Shown here: positions 5,201-59,109 of the stretch, piece by piece | Position numbering within the stretch: position 1 is the stretch's first letter | Layout of the letters: the number at the start of each line of letters is the position of its first letter | Origin: Microthyrium microscopicum | Taxonomy: Eukaryota | Assembly (NCBI GenBank): GCA_010405405.1 | Contig: MU004244.1 | Span: 933,895 to 997,894 of the forward strand | DNA: 64,000 bases | Direction: 5' to 3' | The notes under the pieces: generated by a model | What the model saw: the letters and a program-made list of their open reading frames with translations, nothing else | Told to the model about the DNA's origin: nothing | Database searches by the model: none | Made by a program: the position numbers and the translations under genes

Positions 5201-8200
5201 TGATCCGATGGATCAGGCATCTGAAGAGCCTGATGATGCCGCGGCTGAAGCAGAGGCTCTAGATGATCCAGTAGAAGAACCGACAGTAGAGAAAGAGGCA
5301 GCCGTGGTTGCTCCAGAAGAGCCGGCAGCAGAAGAGCCGGCAGTAGAGGACCCAGTAGCTGATCAGCCAGATACTGGCCCTGCTGTGGAAGAATCTACTG
5401 TGGACGAATCTACTGTGGACGAATCTACTGTGGACGAATCTGCTGTGGAAGAATCTGCTGTGGAAGAATCTGCTGTGGACGAATCTGCTGTGGAAGAACC
5501 TGCTCCTGAAGACTCTGCCCCTGAAGAACCTGCCCCTAAAGAACCTGCCCCTGAAGAACCTGCCCCTGAAGAACCTGCCCCTGAAGAACCTGCCCCTGAA
5601 GAACCTGCCACAGAGAGACTCGTGGTAGAAGAACTCGCAGCAGAAAAACCCGCAGCAGAAGAACCCACAGCAGAAGAGCCCGCAGCAGAAGAACCCGCAG
5701 CAGAAGAACCCGCAGCAAAAGAACCTGCTGTTGAAGCATTTGCAGCACCAGAGTCGGGTGAGAGCGCCGAAGCCGAGGATTCTGGCCTAGAACTACCACC
5801 CCCAACGCCCACCGAGTCAGAGGCACCACATGACGATGCTCCTGAAGACGTTCAAGACGCAGGCTCACCTCAACTTCCTCCACCTACACCGCCATCGCCT
5901 ATTGAAAGTGAGGCCGTAGCTCTGGACGCAGATGCAGTCTCAGAGAAGCTTTCAGAAACCGCGGACGCCCCAGTTCTGGAAGAGCAAGAAACTGACGAGC
6001 CGGCTGTAGAGGCCGAGACCATCAAAGAAGAGTCTACAGATGACGATCCACCACCACTTCCGGCCTCAGCTCCTGAGGCAGATTCAAGCAGTGATCCACC
6101 AGCAGAGCCAGAAACCGAAAAGGCAGAAGTCCAAGAGGCTCAAGCAGCAGCACCAGCAGAGCCAGAAACCGAAAAGGCAGAAGTCCAAGAGGCTCAAGCA
6201 GCAGAAGACTCGCCACCCCCTGCTGACGCCACTCCTGAATTGCCGCCAAGCCCAGTGGCTGAAGAAGTAACCGTTGAAGAGCCAGCGGAGCCGGAACCGC
6301 CTGAGATTAATGAAGAGGCTGAAGATAACCCTGCCTCCGAGGGCCAGAGCGCGGAGCCGGAAGCCGAGGCTCAATCGCAAACAGAAGTGGAAGATGCCCC
6401 TGTTGAAGCCCTTGCTGAAGACGGATCGGAAAAAGACGCAACCGATCAGGATAGCAACGACATCCCTGCGGGCGATACCGTCGAGCAAGATGAAGAAAAT
6501 GAAGAAGATCCTTGCCCTGTCGACGACAACCCACCTGCGGACGACCTGAGTAGAGCAATGGAAGAAGATCACGGCGAGACTGAAGCCGATGATGCGAAGG
6601 AATCGGAAGAACAACATGCTGATGAACCAGCCGGAGAAGAATCTGCCGCTCCAGCTGTGGGAGCTCCAGCAGAAGAAACTACTGCCACACAAGCTCTTGA
6701 TGAGGAAGAAATTGTCGACGTTGATGATACACCCAGCGCTGAAGCCGAAGATCATGCTGAGCCTGCTGAGCCTGTTGAGCCTGCTGAGTCATCGGAAATC
6801 GCAGAATCTGCTGAAGAAATTGCAGAGACCGATAATGCTGCCAGTTCCTCAAAGGAGGCAGAGCTAGCCTCGGCTATCCCAGAAGCTGACACTGAAGATG
6901 CCCCCCCTGAAGCTGAGCCATCTGAAGATTCAGCTGTAGCGGAGAGCGCTGAGGCTTCCAAAGACTTCGGTAGTGAAGGCGACAACGAAACTGTCAACGA
7001 CAAGGCTGAAGCTGATCTTGGCGATACTTTGGAAGAGGTCGAAGAGACCGAAGTCTCAACAGAAGCGCGTGATGCGGTCGAAGAGCCAGAAGCTGCTGAA
7101 GAAGTGGACGAGATACCTCCACCTCCACCACCCCCTCCACTTGCTAATGAGGAGCCGGAGCCAGCCCAAGAACCTGAACCGACCAAGGAAATAGCAGAGC
7201 CAGAGTTAGCGGCCGCTTCTGCAATTGATGCCGGTGAAGAAGAGCCGGAAGAGCCCATTCCTGAGCCAGAGCCCTTAGAGGAAACGGAGCCCGAGGAGGC
7301 CGCACCCAGTGAACCCGTTGTGATGCCTGGTGATGAGCCCACAAGTGAACCTCCAGCCGATACAGAGGATCCAACAGAACCGCCAACAGAAGAATCAGTG
7401 GCCGAAGCACCCGCTGAGGATGACCCTGTTGAGCCAACTGAGGCACCCGCTGATACACAAGAGGCTAGTGATGCTCTTCCAGAGGCCCCTGAACCCCCTC
7501 CAGCGCCTTCAGCGGATGATGCCGAGGTGGCTTCGGAAGCTGGGGACAATGGCGAAACTTTGGAAGAAGAAGGAGAAGAAGAAGAAGAAGGAATACCGCC
7601 TCCACCACCACCACCCGTAGAAGATAATGTGCCTAAAGAGGATGAAGATATCCCAGAACCAGCCACTGTGGACGAAGAAGTGCCAGCTGCGGATGGGGGT
7701 GATGTTGCTGAGCCAGCAGAGGCAGTTGCTGGTGAAGAGTCACCCGCAGAAGGAGTAACTGCGGATGAACCTTCACCAGACGAACCTGCCGTACAAAAGG
7801 ATGCTGATGTTGAACCTGAACCTGAACCTGAACCTGAAATCCAACCTGCCCCTGAACCTGAACCAGCCATGGAAACATCCGAACCAGCCATAGAACCCGC
7901 TCCGACCCCGCCGTCGGCTGAGGACGCGCCGCCTTCAGAAGAGAGAGCTATCAGTCCTCTATCAGCCGAAGATTCCCCTGAAGCCGAAAACGAAGTGACT
8001 CCTGAAGTGGCCACAGATGCGACCCCTGAAGCGATCCCTGAAGCAACTCCAGAAGCGACTCCAGAAGAAGCTGAGAAGGAGATGGCAGATGATGGGAATG
8101 CTGAGGATTTGCCTCCTCTAGCTGCTGGTGTAACACCAACAGCTGAGAAACCAGCACATCGCCGGCGTAGACACTCTCACCGTTCCGATCCGTCTAGTCC

Positions 8201-9746
8201 ACGGGAGAACCGCGATCGTCCTCGGCGCCGTGATACTCTTGTTGAGGCCCCTGATAAACGTCAAAGCACTGGTCTATTCGGCCTAGGCATCTTCGGAAGC
8301 TCCAACAGTCGGCCCAAGGAGAAAGAGAAGGCCCGTGAATTAAAAGCTCGTGAGACTACCAAAAGAAAAGAACCTTCGGCGTTACCAAGCAAAATACTAA
8401 CACCAGCTGAAGAGGAAGAACAACGTAAGAGGCGTGAGGCACGCAGAAAGGAAGAGCGCCGAAAGCGTGAAGGGGATAAACCAAAGAGTGAGTCTAGCAC
8501 CACCAAGCCTATTGAGGAAACGCCAGAAGCTCGTCCTAGCACGAAAGATGAGGCGAAGGAAAAGAAAAAAGCTGACGCTGAACGAACAGCGTATGAACGT
8601 GGAGAGGCTCGTCGCCTTGAAGTTGAGAAGGATGCGGAGCAGATCAAGAAACGTAGCCAGCGGGACGACAACGACAAGCCGACCGAGTCCGATTCTAAGC
8701 CATCAGAGAAAGACCTGTTAAGGAAAAAGCGCGCCGAACGAGAATCTGCACGACGAGCGGCTGAAGAAGAGGACCAGGAAGGTGTTCGCACCAAGTCTGA
8801 CAAACCAAAAGATTCCTCTCCAGCTCCCAAGCCACTCAAAGAAACAGGACGGCGCCATACTACACGAGATCTCAAGAATGATGGTCTTCCTCCCAAGAAG
8901 CCTGGACTTAGTAGGTCTGCGACTCTTGCTACACCCACCAAGTCCACTAGTCTACTCGGCAAATTATTTGGTCGCAATGACACTCCGCCCATGCCGGTCC
9001 GATCTTCTAGCCGAAGAGAAGTCCCTCGTGCCACAGAGAAAGCTGCAGTCAGATCGCCAAGCCAGGAAGCAGCTCGGCGTGAAAGGAAACGCGAGCGCGC
9101 ACTCAAGGATCTGGAGGCAGGCGAAGGATCGTCAGCCGAAAAGAAGTCATCCAAAAGTGGTTCTGAGGGCGACAAAGAATCCAGGAAAGCAACGCCAATC
9201 CCAGAATCGACCCTAAAGGAAGTGCCTGAAAAGACTGCAAAGACTGCAAAGGAATCTCCGACCGTCAAACCGAAAGATCGACCAACATCCCGCCGAATCG
9301 AAAGTGAACGTACTCACAGACGTAGCCCTCGAGTTGAGACTGAGCTGCCACGATCCAGTAGACGAGACCCCGCCAAGACTGATTCGCGACGAGAGCGAGA
9401 ACCTCCGCGTGATGAGCTCGATGATCGTCCCCTTCGACATCACCAGCACCGACAACATCGAGACCGTGAGCCCACAAAGGAGAAAACTAGAGAGCGAGAA
9501 AACCGCCGAGAAGGTAGCGGTGCAGAGAAAGATAGCAAAGGAAAGGAGAGAGACACCCCTCCTTCCAGCAAGCCAGTGACACCCCGTGCCTCCGAAAAGG
9601 AGCGCGAACGACGTCGTCGGGATAGAGATGACCCCGAGCGCGAACGCAGACGGGAGAGAGATTCTCGAACACCACGGGTTCGAGACAAGTCCCCAAAGAA
9701 GAGCGGAGGACTGTTTTCCTCATTCAAACGAACGATGACGAGCTGA
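2225..9746 (+). CDS. Very large (~2,490 aa) Pro/Glu-rich low-complexity protein; exons 2225-2878 and 2925-9746
   Basis: ORF 2213-3193 and ORF 2961-9746 join in frame through a 46-nt phase-0 intron 2879-2924 (GTAAGC...GCTAAC...TAG). The product has poly-Pro runs, EEPA(P/A) repeats and a Lys/Arg-rich C-terminus; no recognisable folded domain. Confidence 0.8.
5380..5730 (+). repeat. Coding 15-bp tandem repeat array (VDEST/VEESA/PEEPA/AEEPA units)
   Basis: Repeated units such as ctgtggacgaatcta, cctgaagaacctgcc and gcagaagaacccgca are visible directly. Confidence 0.85.
6097..6204 (+). repeat. Exact 54-bp in-frame tandem duplication (PAEPETEKAEVQEAQAA)
   Basis: caccagcagagccagaaaccgaaaaggcagaagtccaagaggctcaagcagcag occurs at 6097 and again at 6151. 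Confidence 0.85.
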
Positions 9747-13956: not shown

Positions 13957-16741
13957 ACCTAGGTGTAACATTTCAGGTGAAAACTTTTTGAAGTCCCAGA
14001 AACAGCCATGAGCTCCGCTGAAAGTGTGCTCACATCACCTGCGATATCTTTCAACGCACTCTATAAGTAAAGGATACTATGCTTTACATCGCATTCGATA
14101 TGTCATTGAGGAGTCTACGCTTGCAGTGAAGAATAGAGTACATGATAATATATCGTAGTAGATGGTAGACATCGCACTCGATGGGAGCGTGTTGACTTTT
14201 TGGTCGGTGGGATGGCAGGATTTATCATATAGGAATGATAGCATTGGACTCTGGTGGTCTGATATGCAATATGCTAGTCAGCATCTGACGAATCGTGAGC
14301 AGCACCACAAATATTTGGAATCCAAACTATACTTATATAGAAGTTCCAGCACTTATTTAATGCAGCGACTGATATAAAAGAAACATAAAGGGGTTGCGTG
14401 GTAGACAAAAGTTGCAGCGACGCATCTTAGTTCAGAGCCAGGTTCTGGTCTCCTTGGTATTTGAGCAAAGCTGGGACATGATTGTTAGCTAATTAATTTA
14501 ATAGCGAGTGCGATGGGAGACATCGCAGCAGATGGAATGATACCAGTGATTACGTTCACTGGCTAGGTTATGGCATACGGCTGTCGCCAGTGCAACCCAT
14601 AATTGCCAATAGGCTTGTTAGAAATCATAACATATGTCCTACCAGGCAAAACAATTGCCCGATATGTAGTTCACTACCCAAGAGCAAAGGAACTTGGGTT
14701 CAACAATCAATGAACTGTAGTTGGGCGCACGCCTACACACGCCATCGCTGCCCATGCGCGAGAGCCGGTCATCGAAATACACCACCAAACCAGGTACTCC
14801 GCATCTTTGAGGCTCGGCAAGACGCAAAACCAACAACCGCATCGTAACCCGATTCTGGATCGGGATGCTGTGTGAGCTGTCAACGCTGTCAAGGGATATC
14901 GTGCAGTTCCCAACCAGCAATATCCTGGGACCAAATGTCCGCATTTGCTCCACTGCGGATGAGATGGATGCGCCAACTTCCAATCTCAGCTGATAGCAAC
15001 TTAAAGGCCTTACAGTGGGATTTGAAATGTGCCGGTCTTTGATAAGAAGGAAATCAAAACAATCGAGCCCAACCATAGAAGGAGTGTCGTTGGGTTGAAC
15101 ACAGGGATGTTGATCAGTTCCAGACCCGGATTGGATATTAAGGGCTTGTTTGGGGAAGTACTGCCAGTTCCAGGTCCATTTAGGGATTAAAATTGCCATT
15201 ATTACTCAAGTCAGATGAACCAGAGATGAAAAACGCTCTGGTCGGATGTTGAGTAAGGGTCTTCCCCGGACATGGGGCATTTTGGGCATGGATGCCTTTT
15301 CAACCAATTTTTTGCCATGACGTAGACAGGTCAGAAGTCGAGTCTAAATCATGGAAGCCAACAAGTAGTGCCCGGTTACCGTCAAGTTTCTAAGATTTAG
15401 ATTAGCTTTGATTGTTCTAGTAGTAGCGGGCCGTCGCTTGGTGACAGGTGTTTTCGAGTTTCGAGGTCGGACTGTAGAAACTGCACGCGAACGGTAAGTC
15501 GAAGAAAAAGGGTCCAGCATTCAAGTTGTGCGTCTCGGGCTCCTGAGTCCTCAGCGGCGCTTGAGCCTGATATTGGGTAAAAACACGAGGCGTTTGACGA
15601 TTACCTTCAAATAAGGTAACAGATGGACAGTACGGAGTATTGCCATGGTGATTGACGAGTGAGGTGGTAGCAAATGTCAATCTTCAGAGAGTAAAAGGGA
15701 TATGATCACCGTGCTTCAGCTCTTGCACAGAGCAAGGGCTAAGTTGGGCAGCCTTGTCGGTGTGATAATTGACCCAATAATACCGAATATGGGAGTGAAC
15801 ATGACGACTTATGCAGGCCAGTAAGATGGAGTCGTTGGTCAAAGTGACTACCGGCTCGCGTGGTTGCTGCAGGCAGCTAACCGTGATGGGGGTTGAATAC
15901 GCAGCAGCCAAGCGGCAATTGATAATATGGAAGATAGTAGAGAGGTACATGATGGAATGCCCAAGAAGCATCCATCTCCTCGGGCTGCACTGAGTAGTAT
16001 ACATGTATGGCGATAATAGATTACGAGAGAATCTGGATATGGTAAGATGGGATGAATTTGTTAGGAAGGCACGATGACGAAGGCAGGTAAGAAGGATGGT
16101 CGTAACTTCCTCCAGATGATTGTGACTCCAACCACATCTCCAACAACATCTTCAACCTGATATTCCCATAATATATTACTTAGTACTTTACGCCCATAAA
16201 TCAATTTCTCCTTGTTACCTCACACTCCCACTCATCTGACCGTCGTAATAAAATAACGAGTCTCGGGCAATATTCTTGTGTTTAATTTCTTGCCTAGCGC
16301 AGGTGCGCAACCTCCAGGAATTTGCATCATCACTCTGAGCTTAACAGGCCAAACCTAGCCTCTTCCCGCCCGCTTCGTCACAACGCTCTCTGCGCTCTCT
16401 GCTCGTCCAAACATCTTTCTCACACCCTTGATAGCCCTGTGCGCTTTTGCTTTTGCTTCCAACTCCCAACAAGCCGTTCAACAGGGTCTTCCTTTCTTTG
16501 TTACTCTCCACTCTCTCCGCTATTCCTGGCCACACCACAGGTGGATCCCTTCCTGCTATTCCGCCGGCCATCATTACCAATTTTACATCCGCTCCCTCCT
16601 GAAACCTCCTCCTTCACCGGTAAGCAACAGTGCCTCATTCTCCCCAGTCTCTTCCCTCTCTTCTCTCGCCTGTTTTGCCCTGTTGTTGTGCCTCATTTGA
16701 GCCCTCAACTCCGCCTTCATGTAGCCCATAACCGGTCAAAC

Positions 16742-19700
16742 ATGTCAACCACAAGCTCTACAGCCGCCACAAGCGGCTCTGTTCCTACCCAAACATCCTC
16801 CATCGCTACTACTGCCACCGCTCTTACAAAGCCTACTGCTCTGTTGCCCTTGAACTCCACACTCCGTCGAGTTCAAACTCAACCAGCTTTTGGCTGTCTG
16901 GCCTGTGACACTGCAAGACGTGGCTCAGCTTCTATCAGCGCCAACATAAAGAACCTTCAAATTAACACAGACGATAAAATAGGTGCCATGGATCCGAGAT
17001 ATGGACGCCCGCTATCCCCAGGCGGACGACGTCTAGCAAATCCAGGCCGCCTATCCACGGGAATTCTCGAAGAATACAATGATGGCTACTACACTCGAAG
17101 TCCCCGAGAATATCTCCCTCCTCTCGATCCTCCTCGCCCCGCGTCTCGTCCTATCATCAAGTCTGAAGCATACTCAGGGCGTCCCCGTCGGTCCACACTA
17201 GATCGAGGCGCACCGATCGTTACTGCTGAGGTCAGCCCTACCAGATATGATCGAGACCGTGATGATCATAAACCCCGACGAGAACATCACAAAGTGTACA
17301 CCGTGAACGTTGACCAAGGAGGTGCGCAGCTGGTCGGTGAACGACAGATTGAACGAACCCGAGAAAGAAAATATCCTTCAAGCGGAACATACAATCGACC
17401 ACGAGAAATTGATGAAGATGGCTATTCATATACGGATGCCGCCGGAATGTTTCGTGAAACCGAACCACGTCATCGTCGACGGAGAGGAAGTGTGGATAGA
17501 GCAAGCGGAAACCGACGCTCTAGCACCTACGATAACTACGAAATGCCACCTCGCGCATCTACTCGAGATTTCAATGGCCCACCACCATCCCGGGCTCTGG
17601 ATAGACTAAACGAAAGTAAAATCAGCCGACATGGAAGTTTACAAGAGCGACCATCTCGGACTTCTTCAAGAGATAGAAACGGGACCTATGACAACTACCT
17701 AGCTGCTCCATTGGAGCTACCTTCTCACGATAAGCGTGGCCGCCCGCTTTCTATCGCCAATATACCCTATCATAATCAACATGGCTATGATGAATACGAA
17801 ACACGTCGAAGTGACGATGAGATTGAGCCACGGCGCAGCAGAGGACGATTCAAGGACAACGAAGTGGAGACTCGGGGCTTCGGCATCAGAAGTGCTAGCC
17901 TGGCTCCTCTTGAGCCAGAAGCAAAGCCACGTCTGGCCATTGAAGCAGCGCCACCACGCCGCCCAGTCTCTGCCATATACGCCAATGAGCCAGAGCTCAC
18001 GCTTCCTAATCATCGAGATTACATGCCACGGTCTTCTATTGAGGAGGAAGACCAAAGACGTGATCAAGAACGTCGGCAACAGATGGAGCTAGCCGAGCGT
18101 GACCGGGAAATAGCAAGGGCTCGTGAATTAGACCGGATGCGAGAGGCTGAACGGCTAAGAGAAACCGAACGGGTGCGAGAATCTGAGCGCATGCGAGAAG
18201 CTGAACGGATGCGGGAAGCTGATCGACTACGAGAGCATGAAAGAGCAAAGGAACGAGAACGCGAAACACGCCGAGAACGAGAACGTGAGCAAGAACGAGA
18301 TTACGGCAGACGCGAACACAAAGGACGAGACCATAATGACCGAGACGCTGATTACGACCGCAATTATGACCGCGAGACTTCACGACGAGACCAAGAATAT
18401 GAACATGATGATCACCATAGCCATCGACGACATGCTACTAATGCAGCTATTGCTACTGCCGGTGCCGGTGTAGCCGCTTACGCGGTTGCAAAGGGAGCCG
18501 AGAATCGAGAAAAGGACCGACGAGAAAGAGCGAACAGTGCTGCTTTGGAACCACCCCTTGCGCTTGAGCGTTCAAGAAGTGCACCTCTGGAACCACCATC
18601 TCAGCGCAGCCGAGAAGGAAGCAGAGTACAGGACGCAGCCATTCCTCGAGGCGGATCGCGAGATGTTTCAAGAAATCGTGATGCTCAACGAGAATTGCCA
18701 AGGGAACGAGAAGGCTCTTGGGAGGTTCCACGGGACCGAGATATTCCAAGGGAGCGAGAGCCAGCAAGACAGCAGGCTTTACCTGCTCCACCTAAAGAGC
18801 GAGATATGCCAGGTGCCTTCCCCAGAGACCCTGTTCCACCACGAGAGCTTGCACCATCGCGAGCGATGCCAAAGGAGATTGTGAAATCGAGAGAGCTGCC
18901 CAAGGAGCGCGAGTTCATCCGAGACGATCCCCGTGACATTCCCCGCGAGGCTCCTAGGGAGATGCGCCGAGATACTCAGGACGATTTTATGGCCCCAATA
19001 TCGCGCACTTCTACTCGCGATATGCCTCGGAACGCGGAGGTAGCCCCTAAAGACAGAGCTCCTCCTCGTGAGCGCGATTCACGCGATGCTCCCCGGGATT
19101 TGCCAAGAGATGCGCCTAGAGACATACCCAGAGACATGCCTAGAGACGTACCTAGAGACACACCCAGAGATGTTCCACGGGATGTTCGAGATGCCTCTAT
19201 TGCTACTGCCGGAGCCGGTATAGCCGCTTACGCAGCTGCAAAGGGCGACAAACCGCGGGAAACTCCACGAGAAATTACTCGGGAGACCCCAAGAGACATT
19301 CCACGAGACAATCAGAGAGACATCCAGAGAGATGCTCCACGAGATGTTCCCCGAGATATGGCTCGAGACAATAAGCGAGAAAGCCAACGGGAAGCTCCAC
19401 GAGACCGCGAAAGATCCATGACACGCGACACACCCCGAGAGCGAGAGCGATCTGTACCTCGAGATGCACCAAAAGATCGGGAGCGGGAAGCTGGCCGAGA
19501 CCGTGAACGTGAAGAGCGTGAACGGGAACGGGAGCGACCTCGACGCCGTGACTCATATGGTGCTGAAACAGACAACCGTCGCCCTCCTCGCCCAGAACCG
19601 AATGCACGGGAAGACGCTGCTGAGCGGGACTACGATGAACGAGACCGCGACCGTCGCCGGCGTGATACCGAGGAGTCTACCGGAGAGCGTCGCCGTGATC

Positions 19701-20478
19701 GACGAGACTCTTCTGGAGATAACGATGGTGCCGAAGAGGACTACCGTCGTCGTCTCCTACTTGCGCAGCAGGAACTCTCTCGTCCATCCCCTCCTGCAAC
19801 TCAACCAACCGCTGAAGAAAAATCACTTGGCGCTCCTCGCAATATGCTTGGCAGTACACTTGTCAACGAGCCTCAGACTGTTGAAGGTGCTGAATCTCGA
19901 CGAGACTCCCGAGTTCGCATCGTGGAGCCGCCTCGCAAGGAGCCATCACCGCCACTCGTCAAAGGAATTCTTCGGAAACCAACACAAAAGTTTCCCGAGC
20001 ATCCAAACTTTGTACGCGAAGGCGCCCTCCCACTCAAGGAAGACATCGAAAAGAAGGGCATTCCAGCCGGCGCCCGCTGGACAAAGATTGACCGCCGCCT
20101 CGTGAACCCCGAAGCACTCATTGCATCGAAAGAGCGGTTCGAAGAACGTCTCGACTGTGTGATTGTACTGCGCGTCCTTACGAAGGAGGAGATTCAGAAG
20201 CTAGCAGACAAGACTGCAGAAATCCGAGGTGAGTTACCATAACGCTGATTTTCTGATGGCGTCGCTAATGATGTGTGGCTGCAGCGGAACGGGACGATAG
20301 GCATGAGAAGCGCAAGAGTTCAAAGTATGACGATGATGACCGTAGACGACGCCATGATGATGATAAAGAAGAGACAGAAGATGAGCGCGAGAGTAGGCGA
20401 CGGAGAGATAAAGAGAAGGAGCGAGATGGAGGGCGCGACCGTGAGCGCGAGAGCCATCGTGAGAGGGGAGATCGGTGA
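16742..20478 (+). CDS. Arg/Asp/Glu-rich fungal protein with conserved C-terminal domain (GARWTKIDRRLVNPEAL...RFEERLDCVIVLRVL); start 16742 or 16988; intron 20229-20284
   Basis: Long ORF; the terminal intron GTGAGT...GCTAAT...CAG joins ORF 20275-20478 in frame; PRDxPRD repeats. Confidence 0.75.
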
Positions 20479-46266: not shown

Positions 46267-48030
46267 TCAAACGACATATCCCTTCGTTTGTTTGATGCCG
46301 GCGACATTAATATCTCGCCATATTATGACCGACGCAAACCCAACAACCCAGACCGCAGTAGCAGTGATCATCATGTTCTTCTGCGCGTCTCCATAGGCAT
46401 GCTGAATCGCGAGACGGGTGGGTGAGCCCACTGGAAACGACAGCTGCGTCACAATATCCTCGTATATCATAGCCAAGTTGGGAAGATCATCAGGAGGAAG
46501 GTATAAAGCCAACTTCGTGGGCAGTGTCGCCTGCCAGATTGCCGCGGATATGGTCAGGCCAACGGCAGAGCCAATGCTGCCAGACATTCCCAGGACGGCT
46601 ATGCTGACAGCAAAGTATTGGTGGTCTGCGGCGGCAGCCATGATAGCGATTTCTGGACCGACCATTATAACGCCGCCTGACACAGCGAGGAAGATTTGGC
46701 ACATGACGATATAGCCAATTGCTTGGTCTGGGTCGTGGTATTTGATCATAATGCCGAGGCCAAGTACCGCCATAGGAAGTCCAAGATAGAGGGTGACGGC
46801 CTTGTAGCGGCTGGTATAGGAGATTATGGCACCGGTCATAATGGCGAAGAATATGCTGGCGACAGGGTAGATTTGACTGACATACGTGGCATGTGCAACG
46901 TCCAAGTCGTTGACCACTTGAAGGACGGAAGTGAAATACAGACCCCAGCACGAATAGCTGAGGAAGAGTGTGAAGGATACGATACAGGAGCCGAAAGCTG
47001 TACGATCTTTGAGAATGCGCCATGGTAGGAAGGAAACTTTGGCGAAAAATCGCTCCCAGATTCCAAAACCGAGTAGAAGTATGACGCCCACGACCAAAAA
47101 TCCGATAATTAGGGGTGAGCCAAATCCCTTGGCTTGGAAAGTATAGAGATTAAACGGTAGGGTGGTGAAAGCAACACCAGCTGATAACAAGAAGAGGCCA
47201 ACTACATCGAATTCATGGATGTAGTAAAGCAAAGACTCAGAAGGTGTGCGTCCGCTCTCGCGCTTCGGGATGATCCCCTGTCTTTTGGCCGCGTTAAATT
47301 GATACATAAACAGGCCGAAAAGAGGAAGAGTGACGACTGGAATGAGGATGCTCTCCATCCCAAAAGCCCAACGCCAGCCAGCTCCGGTGAGGAATTTAGC
47401 AGCAATTGGACCTGCTGCCCAAGGTATGACAACCCACGGTATGTTGACCAGACCTTGCATCAGTGCTCGATGGCGCAATGAAGTGGTATCTGCGACAAAG
47501 ACACTAAGGCTGTATCCTATACCATTGATGCCAACAGTATAGAAAATCTGCGATGCAGCATAGGCCTTGACATTGTTGCACGCGGCTGACATGATCAACC
47601 CAATTGTTGCAGATACAACACAAACTAGGAATCCATGTGGCCGTCCAAAGATGTCCAGCACTTTGGCGATGCTGAGATTGGTAACGCCGCCGATGACTGC
47701 GCTCAAGATACCAGTGGTGGGTGTGAGGGAGTGCTCGGCGAAGGCGGAGGTGACATATGGAATGAGAGCTCCACTGACGCCGCTAACCAGAGCTTGAACA
47801 AGATAGATAAGAGTGATTAGAACATAGGCACACACCAGCGAAGTCTTTGACCAGGAGATGGTGATGGCTTCGATGTCCTGGACACCGGACTGGTATGTGG
47901 TGTTGATAACATCGTCCTTGGACACGATGTTGACTAATGAGACCGTGGCTGATTCTGCTTGAACCTTTTCTATGTCAACATTGTCGATGCGGGATTCGGC
48001 TACCACAACCTGGTGCTTGTTGTCGTCCAT
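46267..48030 (-). CDS. Siderophore-iron transporter (SIT/ARN/MirB-like MFS); start 48030 or 48042
   Basis: GVQDIEAITISWSK, PYVTSAFAEHSL, AKVLDIFGRPHG, VFVADTTSLRHR, WRWAFG, GSPTRLAIQHAY. Confidence 0.88.
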   Translation of the reverse strand: MDDNKHQVVVAESRIDNVDIEKVQAESATVSLVNIVSKDDVINTTYQSGVQDIEAITISWSKTSLVCAYVLITLIYLVQALVSGVSGALIPYVTSAFAEHSLTPTTGILSAVIGGVTNLSIAKVLDIFGRPHGFLVCVVSATIGLIMSAACNNVKAYAASQIFYTVGINGIGYSLSVFVADTTSLRHRALMQGLVNIPWVVIPWAAGPIAAKFLTGAGWRWAFGMESILIPVVTLPLFGLFMYQFNAAKRQGIIPKRESGRTPSESLLYYIHEFDVVGLFLLSAGVAFTTLPFNLYTFQAKGFGSPLIIGFLVVGVILLLGFGIWERFFAKVSFLPWRILKDRTAFGSCIVSFTLFLSYSCWGLYFTSVLQVVNDLDVAHATYVSQIYPVASIFFAIMTGAIISYTSRYKAVTLYLGLPMAVLGLGIMIKYHDPDQAIGYIVMCQIFLAVSGGVIMVGPEIAIMAAAADHQYFAVSIAVLGMSGSIGSAVGLTISAAIWQATLPTKLALYLPPDDLPNLAMIYEDIVTQLSFPVGSPTRLAIQHAYGDAQKNMMITATAVWVVGFASVIIWRDINVAGIKQTKGYVV

Positions 48031-49551
48031 GGCTGTTAGCATTTTCTTGTGGAGTTGTATGTTGTCAAAACTCTGAAAAACTTCGCCAGTAGAAGCCAAC
48101 GAAAAGCAAAATGATCAGTATGCGAAAAGTCCCAGGATCGGCGAACTATTAATACATGGTTTGAACTTGAGCAAGACCAGATTGAAGGGTCAACAATCCT
48201 TTAAGCCCATGGTCCTCACGAATGAGCAAAAGATGCTCAGTGACTAACTGTGGTTTGCATTAGGCTGAGTTGATAACAGGCTAAGACGCGCGAAGGATTT
48301 AATTGCCTCTCGCTTTTACAATTACACGAAGTTTACTCGTCAGGATAGAACTTCAGCCAGATACGGCAGTATTCTCTTCATTCATAAGATACCATTTAAG
48401 ATTTGAAGTAGAGCAAGACTAATCAAGCGGTTGACAGAATAAATGTTGCGTTCCCGTCAAGTATGTTGTCGAATCCATGCTATGCTTTAGGACTGCGTGT
48501 TTTATTGCCCCTTGAGTTCGTACAAAAGTTAGTTGTCTCTCAAATGCGTTCGAAATGAAAACTTCTACTGGCTATAAAGTCTGATGGGAGACACCATCGT
48601 TGATGGGAGCGCACCATTTGATTTGTCAACCGTGGACTGATGAGCTCAAATGCGCTGGTTTTCAACTTGGCTTGCACTGTGCAGGGCATTTGCTGTGTAA
48701 TTAACCCCTATGCAGAATTTGTTGGGTATAGAATTATTTTCATCTTATATATGGGCCTTTTTAAAGGACTATCCCTAACTACCTATATCGTAATTTAAGA
48801 TTAAGATAGTAAATTTAAGATTACTTACTATTTATTATAAAGTTTGTATATAAACCTACCTTATTATAATCTACTTATAAATCTATATCTTTTTATTTAG
48901 GAAATATACTATCTAAGCTTGTTACTACTATAAAGTGTACCTAGTCTTTTATCTTTTAATAAATATAATAAGAACCTACTAAAAATCCTTAAAGCCTAAA
49001 TAATAAAGCTAAAAAAAAGTATAATATTTATATAGACTAGGGTAATAATACCTTAGTACCTAATACTAACTAACTAAAACGTAGAGCTAAGCTTAATTAA
49101 TATATATTCCCTACTCTTCTTATCTATTTCTATTTAAGTTTAATAGGGGTCCTTTATTTATTTTTATAGTATTATAGCTAACGGTTAACTATATAAGTAT
49201 AAGTAAGATTAATAAAAGGAAGTTAAGCGTAAAGAATATAAGGCCTAGTTTAAATTAGCTCTAAAAGCTAAAAAAATAGTACTACTTAAGTTAAAAGCTA
49301 AATCTACGCTAAAGGCTTTACTAATAAAGAATAAGGTAAAATTTTTAGTAAAGTCTATTATATAGGAAGATTCTAAAGATAAGAAAAAGATTATTTAGTA
49401 GTAGAAATATAGCTACTTAATAATAATAATAATAAATAAATAGAATATAGTAAAATTAGCTTATATTAAAACTAAATGTATAGTATTTAATACTAGCTAT
49501 ATAAATAGTTAGTAAGAGTTTAATAAAAATACTAAAAAAGAGCTTAGGAAT

Positions 49552-50880
49552 AAAGAGGGTAAAGAGAATAAAGAGAATAGTAAAGATAAATTAGGTAGTA
49601 GAGTTAAAAGTTTAATAGATAAAGAACCTATAGATTTTAATAACTTGCTAAAATTTATAGAGAAAGAGCTAGATAATTTAGTAAAGTTCTTTAAAGAGAA
49701 GAAGAAAGCTAATCTTAAAGAGCTATAGAAGACGTTTATTAAGGGCTAGAAGAAGTATAATAAGACTAATAGATCTATATTAGACTTAGACCCTATTAAT
49801 CTTAATACTAGTGACGTACTCTTAGCTCTAGTTAATTATATTATTAACTTTTATATAAAGTTCTATAAGATTAAGCCTAGTTCTAATATAGGAGGTTTAT
49901 TAATATATAAGAATACTATTAATAGTATTATATAGTAAAATTTTAGTATTATAGTAATTAAGAAGTAGTATATCTTTATAAAAAAGTATACTATAGAGTA
50001 AAAATATAATACTAAGACTATAACTATTTATTAAAGATCTAACTATCCTAAAGTTACTAGTATAATAAAAGACTCTATAATACTTAGCTTTAATGCTAAT
50101 ATCTTTAAGCTATAAATCTAAGTATTAGATTAATATTATTATATAAATTAGTTAAAAAAAAGTATATATTCTATTATTATTAAGCTATAGCTAGTAATTT
50201 AACTAAAGTTACTTACTAAAGTAGTTTCTACTATAAATATTAGAAGTAATACTTACTTCTTATTATAATAATAGAATAGGCTTACTAATAAATATCTACT
50301 AAATAGTAAAAATAACGCTAAGAAGAAAGATAATCTTATTACTATCTTAATATATAACGCTTATACTTAAGAACGTTATCCTAACTTTTGCTACTACTAC
50401 TTTAAGAATTCTAATAAGTAGTATTTTATTATAAATAGTCCTTAGCTTTAAATATAGAGAAATAATATTAATAGTAGTAATGCCTCTACTAAGAATCTAC
50501 CTATAAAGGTTCTTAAGTATTTTTAGAATATTTAGCTTATAATTAGTAGTCCTTTTATAATTATAAATACTTATAGTACTAGAAAGCTATAAAGCAAAAT
50601 ATCTATATTAAGTACTTACTAGTAAGAACTAGAGAATATTATAGAGTAAATAAGACTAAAGACTATTAAATATAAGAGAAAAGCTACGCGTAAGAAAACT
50701 AAGGCTAATAAGAAGCGTTATAATTATTAGTAAAAGATTAATTATTTAGAGCTAGACGTAAAGAAGAAGTAAATTAAACGTAAAAATAAAAAAGCTAATA
50801 GGTAGGCTATATAAGATAAACGTAAGTCTAATAAATATAAGGCATAAAAGAGATATTATAATAGGCGTTATAATTAAGAA
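49552..50880 (+). pseudogene. RIP-destroyed reading-frame relic(s) inside the TIR element
   Basis: Codon-periodic stretches (KEPIDFNNLLKFIEKELDNLVKFFKEKKKANLKEL*...; KRKATRKKTKANKKRY...) broken by TAG/TAA stops of the kind RIP makes from CAG/CAA/TGG; family not identifiable. Confidence 0.45.
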
Positions 50881-53800
50881 TAAGATAATAGAGAAGTAGC
50901 TTTAGCTCTTTAGTAACTACCTATTTAATTATTATTAGTAAGCTACTTTTAGTTTATATATCCTCTTAATATTCTTTATTATAAATCTTTATAAATATAT
51001 ACTCCTTTATAGTAGGCTTATTAATAATTTATATATCTTTAAGCTTCTTCTCTTTTATTAAATTATCCTTAGTTTTAACTTCCTTAGGATTATTATAATT
51101 ACTTATTATTAATAGTTCTATAAGTCTTACTATAGGCTTTATTTTTATTTGTTTAAAATAACTTAGAAATATATATTAACGTAGTATCTTATACTATAAT
51201 ATTAAATTCTTCTTCTGTCTTAGTTTCTAAACCTTATTAAAAATGTCTACTATAGCTATAAATTTAAACTACTTTATTAGAATATAGTTTTAAAAATACT
51301 ATAAAAAGGTAACGTAAGGCTTTAGTAGTTACTCTAATAAAAGCTATTACTTTAAAATGCTAAACTGCTTCTCTATAAAAATAACTACCTATTACTAATA
51401 AGGGCCTAATTATTAAAATTAAATTAAGTCTTATTATAATATCTTTTATATCTCTATATACTAAACTATACGCATTATCTTTAGTACTAAAAATAATTAA
51501 TACTATATAATTATTCTTTTTCTATATTACTTAGTTTAAGCCTATTAGTAATAATAAAGATTAAGAGGTGATTTAAGGAGTAGTAGACTAGTATAATATA
51601 GATATCCTTACTCTAGAGGTAAAAAGTACTTAAAATAGCAATCTTGTTTACTATATATTAGTAAAGGTAAAAGTTTAGAAATTAATAATAGTATAGATCC
51701 TTAGCGTTATTAAGCGTTTTAAGGACTAGGTTATTAAGAAATAGCTTACTAATTAGGAAGTTAGCGTACCTAATAATAAAGAAGATAATCTTATTTTTAG
51801 GAAGTATTACTTAGTAGGTTAATAAGTTCTAGGTAAGTAGTAGGCGTAGTGGTTAATAATAGAGTTAGGGGGTATCTTTTTACTAACTTAAGCTTGTTCT
51901 TATTAATTTATAAGCGGTTAATTTACTAAAATCCTACTAAAGTTATGTCTATTATTATATATTTTTCTATCTTTTACTTTGCTTCTACTATTTTATATTT
52001 ATAATATATCTTATAATTATTTCTTTTATTACTTATTAAAAATAATACTTTTAACTAACGTAGAAAAGATTTAGAAAATTAAATTATTTATTATAGTGTT
52101 AGTAGTTTAGTATTAGTTATAATTAAAAACTACTCCTAAATATCTTATTTATAACTATAAATTTAAGTAAATAATAATTTTAGAAATAATTAACTACTAA
52201 TATCTAGTCTGTTTCTATTACTACTGTTCTCTATTCTAAAACTATCTATAAAAAACTATTTTTATAAAGTAGAAATATTAAATAATACTATAATTTTATT
52301 ACTATCTTTTAATAATTAAAACTACTAGTAAGAAGTTATTTATATAAAGTAAGAAGGTTAAATAATATTAGATTCCTATATCTAAGCCTCTAAAACGCTT
52401 AGTTATATTATAAAAGTTAATAAAGGTTATAAAGAGTTATAAAAAAAAAAAGTAAAGCGTAGATGTTATACTAAAGTAAGAGGTAGAAGGACTTAAGGAT
52501 TAGTATTAGTATTATAGAGAAAGTAGGTTATAAGTTAACTATAAAGAATATAATTAGAGTATAATTCTCTTTAATAGTTAGGATAGCTTATATATTTATA
52601 TAAATCTAGCTAGTTATAATTATAAGTATAAGTTATTAAATAAAGTTAAGTATTACTTATAGGAAGATAATCTAAGTACTAAGTACTATAATAATATAGT
52701 TAAGTAATATAATAAAGAAAAAGTACTATAGTAAAGAATTCTTATATATTTAAAGAAGTAAAGGAGTTTTAGTTAAGTAATATCTCTTTAGAAAATTAGG
52801 CGCTATAGGTAATTACTATCTTATATATAGCGTATCTAGTATTAATTAGTAGTAAGTCTTAAACCTATATATTAATTAGAAAGTAGTCTATACTAGTAAT
52901 AATTTATAAATTCTATCTATAACTTAGTAATATATAAAGATAATAAAAATATTAACTTATATTAGAATTTATTACGATTTAATAAAGTAAGTAATAAATA
53001 ATAGGATTAGAAGGGTTAATTATTATAATATATAAGCTATTAGGCTTATAGTAATAAAATCCTATAGTATTACTAATAACGTTACTAAGATATAAAATAA
53101 AAGGGCGAATATTAGTTAAGCTATTATTAGTATTAGGGATATTACTATAGCTTTTAAAGCTAAAGATTATATTAAGAACTAACTAGTAGTATTAAGCTTA
53201 GAAACTTAAAAAACTATACTAAGGGTTAAGAACTTGTAGATTAACTATAATAAGATAATTTAAGATTATAAAGAGTAAATAGAGTAAATAAAGTAAGTAT
53301 TAAAATAGTTAATAATATAGAAGGGTATAGAAGTAAAATATAAAGTATTATAGAAAAGTTCTTAATAAATATTATATATAAAGTAGTTTATAAAAGTAAT
53401 AGAGAAAACTAAGAATAAATAAGACTTTATAGGCGTTAGAATATATAAATACTATTACCTATTACATTTTAAAAAGTTATAATAAGAATATAATAAAAAG
53501 AACTTACTAATAAAGAGTTACTATTACTTATAATTAGACGTAGGCTAAAATATTAAACTCTCTATACTAGTACCTTTAGTATAACCTAATGCCTAATTAT
53601 AATAATAAGGCCTATAAGATTAAGATAACTATAATAGTTAGAATAGTAATAAGGAAGATATTATAGATTATAATAAATAGATAAAATAGAGCTACTATTA
53701 TAGCTAATAATATAAAGATCTAAAGATATAATCTTATACTATATTATAACTATAATAGAAAAGAATTAATATTATATTTAGATACGCTAATAAGAGTAAT

Positions 53801-55049
53801 TAGTAAGTAATAGTAACTATCTATAGTAATAGACTAGTAGAGATTAACCTATTAGGTTAATTATAATAGGTAGGTAGTAATATACTTAAGATTTATATAC
53901 TAGTATGTATAATATTAGCTAGAAGGTAGTATTTAGTATAGTCTCTTAGATTTTATAGTTTTATAGTAAAATTACGAAGTCTTATAATATTAAGGGAGTA
54001 AATAGTAAAATAATATAGCCTAATTTTTTAGTAGGTTTAATACTAAGCTACTATTTATCTAATATTTTATATTATTTAATAAAATAAAGATAGGGTTGTT
54101 TAGAATATTTATATAAACTATAGATAGTAAATATAAATAAAATATATATTATAGTTAATATATAGTAAAGCTAAATAGAAATATATAAAAAACTAATATA
54201 TTAATTATAACTAAAGAGTAATATACTACTTCTAGATTTTAGTAAGGGCTAAATATCTTCTTTAAAAATACTTATAATATATATTATTTAGATTAATATA
54301 GCATATTAATATCTTTAACTACTAAGGCTATAACTTTATAAAGATATATTTATAAATAGCTAATAATTATCTCTTATTATCTATACTATAATTATCTATA
54401 TATCTTATTATTACCTAAAGCTTTATAACTATTAAACTTTATCTCTAAATATAATCTTATTACTAGCTATTCTTAATATACTATACTTACCTTATACTTA
54501 TAATTATATAGTAACTTTATCTCTTAGTATAGTATATCCTATTAATTTAATATATATAATAATATTATACGCTATAAGTAGCTAGTAGTTCTCTCCTTAG
54601 TATTTATATTCTTAGTAATATTATCTTATATTACTAATAAATTATATTATTAATATTAAGGCTAGTATAGATAATAGCTTTATATAATACTATTAGTAAT
54701 TCTTAACTTCTCTTCCTTAATACCTAAATACTATATAACTTTAGCTATAGTAAATTAGGTATTTACTATTCTCTTCTTTAATACTAAGTAGTATACTCTT
54801 ACTATTTATCTTCCTATTAGTAAGTTCTTTACTCTAGTCTTAATATTAAGATTATATAAATCTATTCTTAGATATTAGTACTTTATTACTACTAATAAAT
54901 TACTTATTAGTATATAGTATAGATATAGAGGCTAGTTATAATAAATATATCCTAATCTAGTATTACTTAGTATAAAAGGAATATAAAATCTATTCTTTAC
55001 TTACTATTCTTTAGTACTTCTCTATCTTCCTTATTTAATACTTATCTTT

Positions 55050-55622
55050 TGTGACGCCGCAGGGCGATCCCTACCTAAACGGCTCAACTAATGCAAAAAG
55101 TACCGTAGTGTCCAAGCTCGGACACTCCGTGGGATCGCACGTACATATTCTGCACGTCTTGGGAGCCGTTACGGGCTCCCACGGCCAGCATCTCGCTGCC
55201 GTACGGAACGCTCCCGTGACATACGCTCCTCTCTTCAACAAGCCTGTCCTCAGGCGATTATATGTACGCAACTTCCAGCAACGGGCTCTCTGTCCTTTGA
55301 CGACGTCATCGTGTTCGTCACGTGACGCGAGCACTAAGCAAATCGTTATGCTTTGTAGGCTGTCCAGTTCTGTTGCCTCTGCACGAATCGAACCCGCGAC
55401 CTGCGGGATTCACAGACGACAGGGGTAGTACTGGTTGAGCTTGGACACTTTGTGACGCCGCAGGGCGATCCCTACCTAAACGGCTCAACTAATGCAAAAA
55501 GTACCGTAGTGTCCAAGCTCGGACACTCCGTGGGATCGCACGTACATATTCTGCACGTCTTGGGAGCCGTTACGGGCTCCCACGGCCAGCATCTCGCTGC
55601 CGTACGGAACGCTCCCGTGACA
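55050..55622 (-). mobile_element. Non-autonomous mini LTR retroelement (TRIM-like), 573 bp: LTRs 55050-55221 and 55451-55622, 229-bp internal region, TSD TCTTT
   Basis: Two identical 172-bp TGT...ACA direct repeats; TCTTT at 55045-55049 and 55623-55627; minus-strand PPT GAAGAGAGGAG abuts the 3' LTR. Confidence 0.92.
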
Positions 55623-55860
55623 TCTTTACTAATATATTACTTTATTACTTAAGTTAACGCTAGTTTACTATTCCTATTCTATTATTTTTTTATTTAGAAT
55701 AACTTATTCTTTAGTATCTATACTATTAATAAGTCTCTTCTTATAATATTATATTACTAGCTTTAGTAATCTACTATAATTTAATAATAACTAGGATCTA
55801 AATAGGATTTTAACTCTCTTAGTAGTCTACCTCTATATTATATCTATAAACTATAAGTTA

Positions 55861-56220
55861 AGCTACTCTCTAGTATATATTCTCTTAATCTCTCTAGTTT
55901 ATTTAGGTTAAGTTACCTTTTAGTATATATTTTCTTAATTTCTCTAGTTTATTTAGGTTAAGCTGCCCTCTAGTATATATTCTCTTAATAATATTATTAA
56001 GAGAGTTAGGACTCTATACTTTATAGCTTATTAGATTAACTCTAATTTAGTTTTAAGACTTAGAGCTATAGGACTTTATTCCTTATAAGGTGCTATCTTT
56101 ATATTATTTTTATAAATTATAGGTTAAGTTGCTATTTAGTGTATATTCTCTTAATTTCTTTAGTTTATTTAGGTTAAGTCATTATCTAATATATATTTCC
56201 TTTATCTCTTTAGTTTATTT
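55861..56220. repeat. 50-bp minisatellite (two blocks, ~4.6 units) inside the RIP'd element
   Basis: Unit ~agctactctctagtatatattctcttaatctctctagtttatttaggtta at 55861, 55911, 55961 (partial), with two further units spanning 56121-56220. Confidence 0.75.
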
Positions 56221-59109
56221 ATTAGAACTTTACTAATTCGCTTTTCTAAAAGAATATTATAAGAGGTTAGGCTCTGCTAGCTCGCTATTCTAAAAAGAAT
56301 ATTAAAAGAGCTAGGACTTTACTACTACTAGATTACTACTATTTAAAAGTAGTAATAAGATTTTTAAAACTCTTTCCTTACTAGTACGCGCCTTTACTAT
56401 ATTAAAAAATACTATCTTCTATATAAGACTCTAACTTCTATACCTTTGCTTTTATATCTCCTATATATTACTAAAGTATATAAGAGTAAAGGCTTTAGCT
56501 TATTAGCCTTATATTTAAGATGATAAGGAGTTCTATTAAGACTCTAGTATAGTAGTTAACTTCTTTTATCTAAATAGACTAAGAAACTATATAAGAAATA
56601 CTAGTTAGTAGTCCTTATTTATACTTACTATATATAGAAGTAGATAAAGACTACTTATTAGCGTAGAATAGCTAATAAGAATAAGGATAGAGAGATAAAG
56701 AATAGTAAAATATTATTTAATAGTTAGTTTATAAGATATAAAATAAACTAAACTACTATATAATATTAATATCTTATAATTATAATATATAAATTACTTA
56801 GTAGTATCTATATTACTCTAAATATTCTCTTTATAACGTAATAACTAATTATTTTATTAATAAAGCTTTACTATACTTTATATCTTATATTTCTAAAGAA
56901 ACTTATAATATATATATATATCTATTCCTTTATAATATAAACTCTTAGTAATATACCTAAACTATCTAACTATAAAGTAATTATAGCTACTAACTATAAC
57001 TATATACTCTAAAAAAGATATAAAGTTCTTAAAATTTTATTATTTATATACCTAATTCCTTTTTATCTAGGCTTTAAGAATATTAAACGTTAACTCTATT
57101 AAATTAAAATTAGAAGAGTAGGATAATAAATAGTGAATAATAAAGCCTATACCCTTTAATAGCTATTCTATACCTAAATTAGTATAAACTAAGATATTAT
57201 TAAGTACTATAATAGGTATATAATCTCTAAACTAATATTATAATATTAGTATTAGTTATATTGTAATTTAATAATAGAAATCTTTTATATTATAGTACTC
57301 TTCTTAAAATCTAGTATAAGGAAGATATCTATTAAGTATTATAATAGCTAGAATTATATATATCTTTCTATAGTTTATATTTTATATTTATTATAAGAGT
57401 TAACCTATAGGCGTATATATATGTAATCTTTAGCTATTTTACTCTTTAAAGATAAACTTATTTAGAAAGACTAAATCTTAAGCTTTAAACTATAATAAAT
57501 CCTAGTAGTATATAATATAAAGCTCTTTACTCCTATTTAGTAATAATTATATAATAGCTTTTATATTCTACTCTCTTTTCTTAAGTATTCTAAATATTAT
57601 AGACTTATTTACTAATATACTACGCTCTTATTCTAGCTAGTGAACTATTTTAGCCTATAATTACTAGCTATATAATAAAAGATATTATAATAAGGTATCC
57701 TTATTTACTAGTTTAAGTTATAAAAGCGTTTTATATAGTAGTATCTATAGTTTTTATATAGACTTATATTTTCTTATATTATATTTTTAGTACCTAATTA
57801 TTTATATTAAATAGTATATCTTCTTAATAATTCTTACTTTAGTCTAGTTATATTTAAGATATATAATAGCATAGATATAATAAGTTATATTAATATATAT
57901 TCTGCTTAGTTAATATGCCTAAGTTTATATCTAGCGCGTAGCTATAATATAAGGATCTATAATAGTATTAGTTTTAATAGTTAAAATTAGGATAGAAGGA
58001 GTAGTTATTATAATAAGCACTATATATAGAGGTAAATTAGGCTAAGAATCTAAGGCAATAAAATAATAGTTTAGTATATTTGCTTAGTAACTAGTAAGGA
58101 AAGCTATAGTTTTTAAGCTCTTAATAATATAATATACTATAAGGAATATAGCGCTTATACTTTTAATATATATAATATAGTAGATAGCAAGTAGTAGTTA
58201 ATTTACTATCTTAATCTTATTATAGTATAGATGGTTAGGGATAGTCCTTTAAAAAGGCCCGTGCATGAGATAAAAATAATTCTATACCCAACAAATCATG
58301 TAAAACCAATACCTAGATACCTTAAGAGAAATCCTCACCGTAATTTTCACGCATAATCCATCACATCTGAACACGGTTCGCTGCTAGATACGCGGCATAT
58401 TGCCAGGACTTGCAACGGACCGACAAAGTAAATGGTACCCTTCCACCTGCTACTCTTTGGAACCAGATGCTTTATTTTTCATCGAAAGTATCAAATCGTT
58501 GAAGGTGTAGACTCTTCGACTGTTAAAGCATCGGTTTCCCATCAATCACACTGGATTTCAAGGCTATCTCTCGACGTGAAGTGCGACGGGAGAAATTATG
58601 CCTGTTGGGAGCACCATATTCATCGTGCCAAGTTATCAACCAGTTGAGTGCTTGAAGAAGTCAGTGGATGGGACGCTGCAGACATATATGCAAGGTATTA
58701 GACGCAAAAGGAGCAAACTTGCGCAGCTGCAGCCTGCAGGTCAGTGGTCAAAATCGTGATTAGCATGTTTCTAAATCCTCAACAATATGGACATACAGCT
58801 GAGAAACAATTATCCATACCAGCATATGAGAGCCATCGCCATTGGGATGTGGAAGCTTGCCACCATAAGCCAAGTCAAACTGAGCAAACCAAATCGCGAC
58901 CTAATCACACATCTACAACATCTTGAAAGCTCATGCCATCGCTACATTGGATCTGCTTGTTTGCCTGTCCCATCAAACCTCCAGTGTAATGCCCAGCGAA
59001 ACCTACGAAGAAGTGTTAGCAGCAGCCTTCTATCCCTCTCCTTCTCTTCTCTATTTCTCTTCACTACAAGTGTCACCTACCACCCTTAGATCACTAACAA
59101 GCGGGCAAA

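Follow-up and report, generated by a model that had tools for sequence, protein, structure and literature searches.

A candidate self-priming site in a 573-bp non-coding LTR retroelement of Microthyrium microscopicum

The window, a 64,000-nucleotide stretch of Microthyrium microscopicum contig MU004244.1 analysed as a whole, carries at positions 55627-55045 a complete small LTR retroelement of the TRIM type, 573 bp long excluding its target duplications and oriented, like all of its features described here, on the minus strand. The element is enclosed by two copies of the target-site duplication AAAGA (upstream copy 55623..55627, downstream copy 55045..55049), both read from the letters, and its borders fit a contig that joins the flanks directly (55043 to 55622, with 578 bases skipped). 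The 5' LTR (55451..55622) is 172 nt long with TG..CA termini, beginning TGTCAC and ending GTCACA, and is identical at 172/172 bases to the 3' LTR (55050..55221). Between the two lies an internal domain of 229 nt (55222..55450), in which, 4 nt ahead of the 3' LTR, the polypurine tract GAAGAGAGGAG (55226..55236) can be read from the letters, preceded by the four bases TGTT. The position of this tract on the minus strand fixes the orientation of the element; the plus-strand orientation was considered and rejected because no purine tract precedes the LTR there. The first-pass annotation had described the element as lacking coding capacity, and this is borne out: the interior contains no ATG-initiated open reading frame of at least 30 amino acids, and the only two such frames in the element are an identical 35-aa frame in each LTR. 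Since the interior has no frame and the LTRs have only these, the element is non-coding. No second copy was found by blastn within the 64-kb window.

Three further features were noted in the interior. The segment 55381-55397, GCGGGTTCGATTCGTGC, resembles a degenerate T arm or B box of a tRNA and is preceded by a loop-like CTGTGAA motif; neither ARAGORN nor Rfam calls a tRNA at this position, and the segment may be what is left of a captured piece of tRNA or SINE. A perfect 12-nt palindrome with a CACGTG core, CGTCACGTGACG, is located at 55316-55327, and the motif TGACGTCG at 55301-55308. Either of the latter could be an RNA dimerisation or packaging signal, or a transcription-factor site.

The element (GC 56%, (CpA+TpG)/(ApC+GpT) index 0.85) lies within an AT-rich block of about 10 kb (48001-58502), and its flanks (GC 19-21%, index 0.04-0.08) have the signature of repeat-induced point mutation (RIP), so that an un-RIPped element is set within heavily RIPped DNA. 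The RIP-mutated flank just upstream of the element (55802-56221) contains repeats of about 50 nt, in a 154-nt unit present in three copies that lie 50 and 216 nt apart. Elsewhere in the window are a Fungal_trans domain, an exon of ELP1 with 99% identity to a protein assigned to M. microscopicum, a Dothideomycete, and two very long open frames on the plus strand that have no Pfam match: one of 2273 aa (2925-9746), rich in E, P and A and including long runs of proline, and one of 1314 aa (16298-20242), rich in R, E and D. Both long frames coincide with a strong A-over-T skew (0.29-0.37).

Contigs from four sequencing runs cover parts of the element. In each of two runs of one sample, a 286-nt contig spans 55193-55478 with 0 differences, and a 344-nt contig of another study spans 55276-55619, including both of the 13-mers discussed below, likewise with 0 differences; contigs of two studies match without difference, so the stretch is real and not an artefact of assembly. 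A contig of the same sample as the former joins 55043 to 55622, skipping 578 bases (573 + 5), and is taken to be a paralogue of the flanking repeat that lacks the insertion. Other LTR copies in the same sample are heavily altered by C>T and G>A changes (one example has 22 within 154 bases), and are therefore dead relics; being RIP-mutated, they are uninformative as to whether the complementarity between LTR and primer site persists in the family. One RIP-mutated relative, seen in two of the runs over 55330-55609, has LTR position 159 joined to interior position 63, so that 75 bases, among them the LTR end and the primer site, are skipped, either by deletion or because that stretch is divergent. 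The copy described here is the only intact one seen in the surveyed runs. The element family has been active over time, and the present copy is young and recently inserted, as seen from its identical LTRs, its intact target duplication, its escape from RIP and the element-free flank contig. An element that moved recently requires a working primer site, and no candidate other than the one described below is visible. Two further studies, whose labels name two other organisms, have contigs in which 344 nt and 189 nt of the element occur with 0 differences; the 344-nt contig includes the presumed U3, and an assembler could have produced it from either DNA or RNA.

The feature of greatest interest lies where the 5' LTR meets the interior. 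The sequence from the LTR end onward is AAGTGTCCAAGCTC, and after a single spacer base (A, 55450) comes the 13-mer AGTGTCCAAGCTC (55449-55437), the putative primer-binding site, which is the perfect reverse complement (13/13) of GAGCTTGGACACT (55520-55508; LTR positions 103-115), the putative self-primer. The first-pass annotation had reported precisely such a 13-nt complement, 1 nt past the 5' LTR, and both its coordinates and its letters proved exact. The bases immediately beyond the duplex are mismatched at both ends, and such sharp ends are to be expected if one end is the 5' end of the RNA and the other is a cleavage site. This 13-mer is by far the longest complement between LTR and interior, the runner-up being a 9-mer. 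This 9-nt complement, between interior positions 183-191 and LTR positions 75-83, was set aside as unremarkable, about 0.14 such matches being expected by chance according to an estimate. Within the LTR, the 13-mer forms the 3' part of the 20-nt palindrome AGTGTCCGAGCTTGGACACT (55508..55527), which has one G.T mismatch, straddles the presumed border of U3 and R, and may have a function of its own. The primer-binding site is identical to the 5' arm of this palindrome at 11 of 13 positions, and the two differences fall at the positions of the single G.T mismatch; because both differences perfect the pairing with the 3' part of the palindrome, the site truly complements that part rather than copying the 5' arm.

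The geometry of the LTR suggests a place for the start of transcription. Upstream of the 13-mer, the only 8-mer with at least seven A/T bases is the TATA-like AATATGTA (55543..55550; LTR positions 73-80), of which the first base lies 30 nt and the last base 23 nt upstream of the start of the 13-mer (LTR position 103), in agreement with the earlier description of an AT-rich motif about 25 nt upstream of it. The LTR contains just one other 8-mer with at least seven A/T bases, TACTTTTT, which lies downstream at LTR position 120, and the rest of the LTR is GC-rich. AATATGTA is a poor TATA box. A start at 55520 would have C at -1 and G at +1, and would divide the LTR into a U3 of 102 nt (55521..55622; LTR positions 1-102), comprising all that is upstream of the first base of the complementarity, and an R-U5 of 70 nt (55451..55520). 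This putative R-U5 would contain a T5 run (55494-55502) and, in the predicted fold, a hairpin right after the primer and a second hairpin (GUAGGG/CCCUGC).

The 101-nt RNA corresponding to 55520-55420 is predicted to fold into two hairpins closed by the 13-bp duplex (-37.4 kcal/mol, z = -3.51), and none of 200 shuffled sequences folds as well. The duplex appears in the best predicted fold for all four of the 5' ends tried, from 55545 to 55520, and the predicted stability of the LTR/site duplex alone is -22.7 kcal/mol versus -13.1 kcal/mol for the palindrome hairpin alone. The whole RNA of 299 nt is not unusually stable (z = -1.30; 21/200 shuffles fold as well). Candidate side helices are short: the GUAGGG/CCCUGC hairpin, which precedes the site by 10 nt, and a 6-bp candidate for a crossing helix (GGUACU/AGUACU). 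The three-duplex 'pretzel' described for the RNA of the Tf1 group would be partly recognisable in the models, the central duplex being clear and the candidate 6-bp side duplexes weak.

Such a fold might also be purely structural: the duplex may be a U5-leader stem that serves packaging, dimerisation or template presentation, with something else acting as the primer. U5-leader stems beside the primer site are common in retroviruses and needed for initiation, according to the account given in PMC5445492. The formation of the duplex under every assumed 5' end and the weakness of the other two 'pretzel' duplexes are what this explanation would lead one to expect, but the duplex sits on the primer site itself, and there is no other sequence near the LTR that resembles a primer site. 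Furthermore, a stem with a structural role seldom requires a run of 13 perfect Watson-Crick pairs that ends sharply, and the spacing of -30 from the TATA-like motif would have to be a coincidence. A purely structural role is therefore considered unlikely.

It is slightly less probable again that priming falls to a host RNA, whether a fragment from inside a tRNA, as for copia, Ty5 and the fungal Helenus TRIMs, or another small RNA, with the LTR 13-mer having been captured or having arisen by chance. In most of the fungal Helenus TRIMs, as presented in PMC10886601, the primer site is complementary to a tRNA anticodon loop and the target duplication measures 5 bp, and the interior of the present element does include the degenerate tRNA-like T arm (55397-55381). 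On the other hand, the LTR contains nothing tRNA-like by ARAGORN or Rfam, and membership in Helenus or another group of Pol III TRIMs was rejected for this reason. No conventional site is in evidence either: the absence of a TGG-type tRNA primer-binding site noted in the first pass holds, as the 84 nt past the LTR are free of TGG and the first one is found at 55366-55364, 85 nt into the interior. ARAGORN finds no tRNA gene in the 64-kb window, and Rfam gives no tRNA match between 54900 and 55800 at E values up to 10. In a search of metagenomes with the 17-mer made up of the site and the next four bases, which detects matches of at least 17 nt only, 40 loci were found, all in unrelated contexts, and 0/40 were within 150 nt of a tRNA (ARAGORN); at 0/40 of these loci was the LTR 13-mer present within 200 nt upstream of the 17-mer. 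A host-RNA primer would also need a second coincidence, namely that the same 13-mer lies at -30 from the TATA-like motif.

In the chance test, the start of the complement could be any one of the six bases right after the LTR, and the LTR was shuffled with its dinucleotide composition preserved; a 13-base complement was found in 0 of 20,000 shuffles, the maximum being 12 bases, seen once. It is very improbable that the match is a functionless product of chance or by-product of the LTR palindrome, even though the site is 11/13 identical to the 5' arm and a partial duplication of the LTR could have placed it there, in view of this shuffle test, of the two differences from the 5' arm that exactly perfect pairing with the 3' part, and of the need of a recently mobile element for a primer site that works.

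Self-priming of the type known from Tf1, in a non-autonomous miniature LTR element, is the best reading of these data, with a probability of roughly 0.6. According to this model, RNA polymerase II would start at about 55520, 30 nt after the start of AATATGTA, and nucleotides 1-13 of the transcript are predicted to fold back over the 57 nt of R-U5 that follow them and the one spacer base, and to pair with the site. Judging from Tf1, a helper reverse transcriptase would then cut with its RNase H after nucleotide 13, between 55508 and 55507, and the freed 3' end would prime a minus-strand DNA of about 70 nt, primer included; strand transfer, polypurine-tract priming and integration would follow as in any LTR element. 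Gag, protease, reverse transcriptase/RNase H and integrase would all have to be supplied in trans, presumably by a self-priming Ty3/gypsy element that is autonomous, belongs to the Tf1/sushi kind and lies elsewhere in the genome. According to the standard model of how retroviruses make their plus-strand DNA, the primer sequence is written back into the site to which the primer annealed. In an element that primes itself, a perfect and sharply bounded complement of the primer would thus be restored again and again, and this matches what is observed. If the model of self-priming is correct, the transcript start (55520) and the RNase H cut (55508/55507) would be recorded in DNA as the two sharp ends of the site, and the palindrome at the U3/R border could form a hairpin that competes or offer the primer a second place to land in the 3' LTR.

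The first-pass proposal of a self-priming non-coding element finds partial support: the position of the site, the absence of a tRNA-type site, the TATA-like sequence at about -30, the sharply bounded duplex, the lack of coding sequence and the recent mobility all fit it; the accompanying suggestion that the element parasitises a chromovirus is pure inference. In a search for relics of a helper, all six frames of the AT-rich block 48001-58502 were translated with X in place of stop codons and compared with Pfam, and no relic of a reverse transcriptase or an integrase was found. The same block contains, at about 57049-57474 on the minus strand, a transposase relic of the DDE_3 (Tc1/mariner) type that matches only weakly (E = 4.5e-05; 23.8 bits against a Pfam cut-off of 28.6). 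Relatives were sought by pattern, with 0 matches to the 22-nt LTR palindrome pattern in metagenome contigs, and 0 matches in viral contigs to either the 18-nt core of the palindrome or the pattern of primer, gap and site.

The odds are about even that this 573-bp unit is the first example found of a non-coding LTR element with a primer of its own and a complete minimal cis set for self-priming of the Tf1 type. That set, if the model is correct, comprises a promoter, a 13-nt primer, a 57-nt R-U5, a primer site, packaging signals and a polypurine tract. The novelty that was tentatively claimed in the first pass has to be narrowed, because self-priming had already been proposed (in fungal Ty3/gypsy elements) and fungal TRIMs described, but the combination was not found in print. 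No self-priming non-coding TRIM was found in the open-access literature, although the supplementary tables of PMC6317226 and PMC10886601, which lie outside that search, might list some. Among the papers matched by that search, terms for self-priming and TRIM occur together only in one on bivalve TRIMs, without a proposed mechanism, and neither 13-mer occurs in the open-access literature searched. The element does not represent a new principle, as one would expect self-priming to survive in any deletion derivative of an element that has it. If correctly interpreted, it would show which RNA signals are sufficient for a helper reverse transcriptase to find, cut and extend a self-primer, and it would be a convenient marked substrate for tests of self-priming. 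Annotation tools that demand a tRNA-type primer site will miss or misorient fungal elements of this kind, and for this reason non-autonomous LTR families of fungi may be under-counted.

To our knowledge, Tf1, a coding element of 5 kb, is the only one in which experiments have established how self-priming works. Cft-1, for which self-priming has been proposed, comes from a Dothideomycete, the class to which M. microscopicum also belongs. The present element resembles the self-primers of filamentous ascomycetes, such as Cft-1, in its host group and in its predicted tRNA-independent priming, but those are full-length or degenerate coding elements, here compared by description only. Self-priming has already been proposed for many fungal Ty3/gypsy elements, or chromoviruses.

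The GalEa Copia elements of Pezizomycotina, as characterised in PMC5445492, are similar to the present element in having no tRNA site, LTRs of the form TGT..CA, a 5-bp target duplication and a palindromic motif at the position of the primer site. Their Conserved Hairpin Site (CTGATCAGT or CTAATTAGT), however, pairs 12-41 nt downstream in the interior and not with the LTR (PMC5445492). A GalEa hairpin site was considered for the M. microscopicum element and rejected, as neither CTGATCAGT nor CTAATTAGT is present and the LTR is followed by AAGTGTCCAAGCTC instead.

TRIMs, in the definition quoted in PMC6934838, are elements of less than 1000 bp with terminal direct repeats of 100-250 bp. The M. 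microscopicum element, with its 573 bp, 172-bp LTRs, polypurine tract, target duplication and lack of coding sequence, fits the TRIM definition except for its apparent lack of a tRNA-type site. Like fungal Helenus and plant Cassandra, it is shorter than 1 kb, has a 5-bp duplication and a polypurine tract, is non-coding and would depend on a helper. The primer sites of described TRIMs are complementary to the 3' end or the anticodon loop of a tRNA, whereas the site of the present element pairs with its own LTR. Helenus elements have tRNA-like LTRs with A and B boxes and anticodon-loop primer sites, unlike the LTR described here, and complementarity between the tRNA-like part of the Helenus LTR and the primer site was sought by Kojima (2024) without success (PMC10886601).

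The closest likeness is to the Tf1/sushi elements. In Tf1, it has been demonstrated that nucleotides 1-11 of the RNA pair with the primer-binding site and that RNase H cuts between nucleotides 11 and 12 (PMC7175516), so the primer proposed here, at 13 nt, is longer than that of Tf1. The same priming has been proposed for Tj1 (PMC4600332) and for Tosmo1-3 and Tcry1 (bioRxiv 10.1101/2022.12.06.519325). The latter source describes the RNA 'pretzel' of the Tf1 group as a central duplex of primer and primer-binding site plus two duplexes formed between sequences adjacent to the site and the LTR; these flanking duplexes are weak in the present element. It also gives TCTT as typical of the bases before the polypurine tract in fission-yeast elements, where the M. 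microscopicum element has TGTT. Tf1/sushi elements are autonomous, about 5 kb long, and encode gag-pol with a chromodomain integrase, whereas the present element has no coding frame; with nothing encoded, it falls outside the Tf1/sushi clade and is at most a dependant of it. In the predicted arrangement of its priming signals, nevertheless, it is like Tf1 and Tf2 of Schizosaccharomyces pombe and like Tj1, Tosmo1-3 and Tcry1 of other fission yeasts, in all of which the primer-binding site past the 5' LTR is complementary to LTR sequence downstream of the TATA box, and it shares with Tf1/sushi elements an apparent lack of a tRNA site, LTRs that end in CA and, in its predicted fold, a duplex that closes R-U5.
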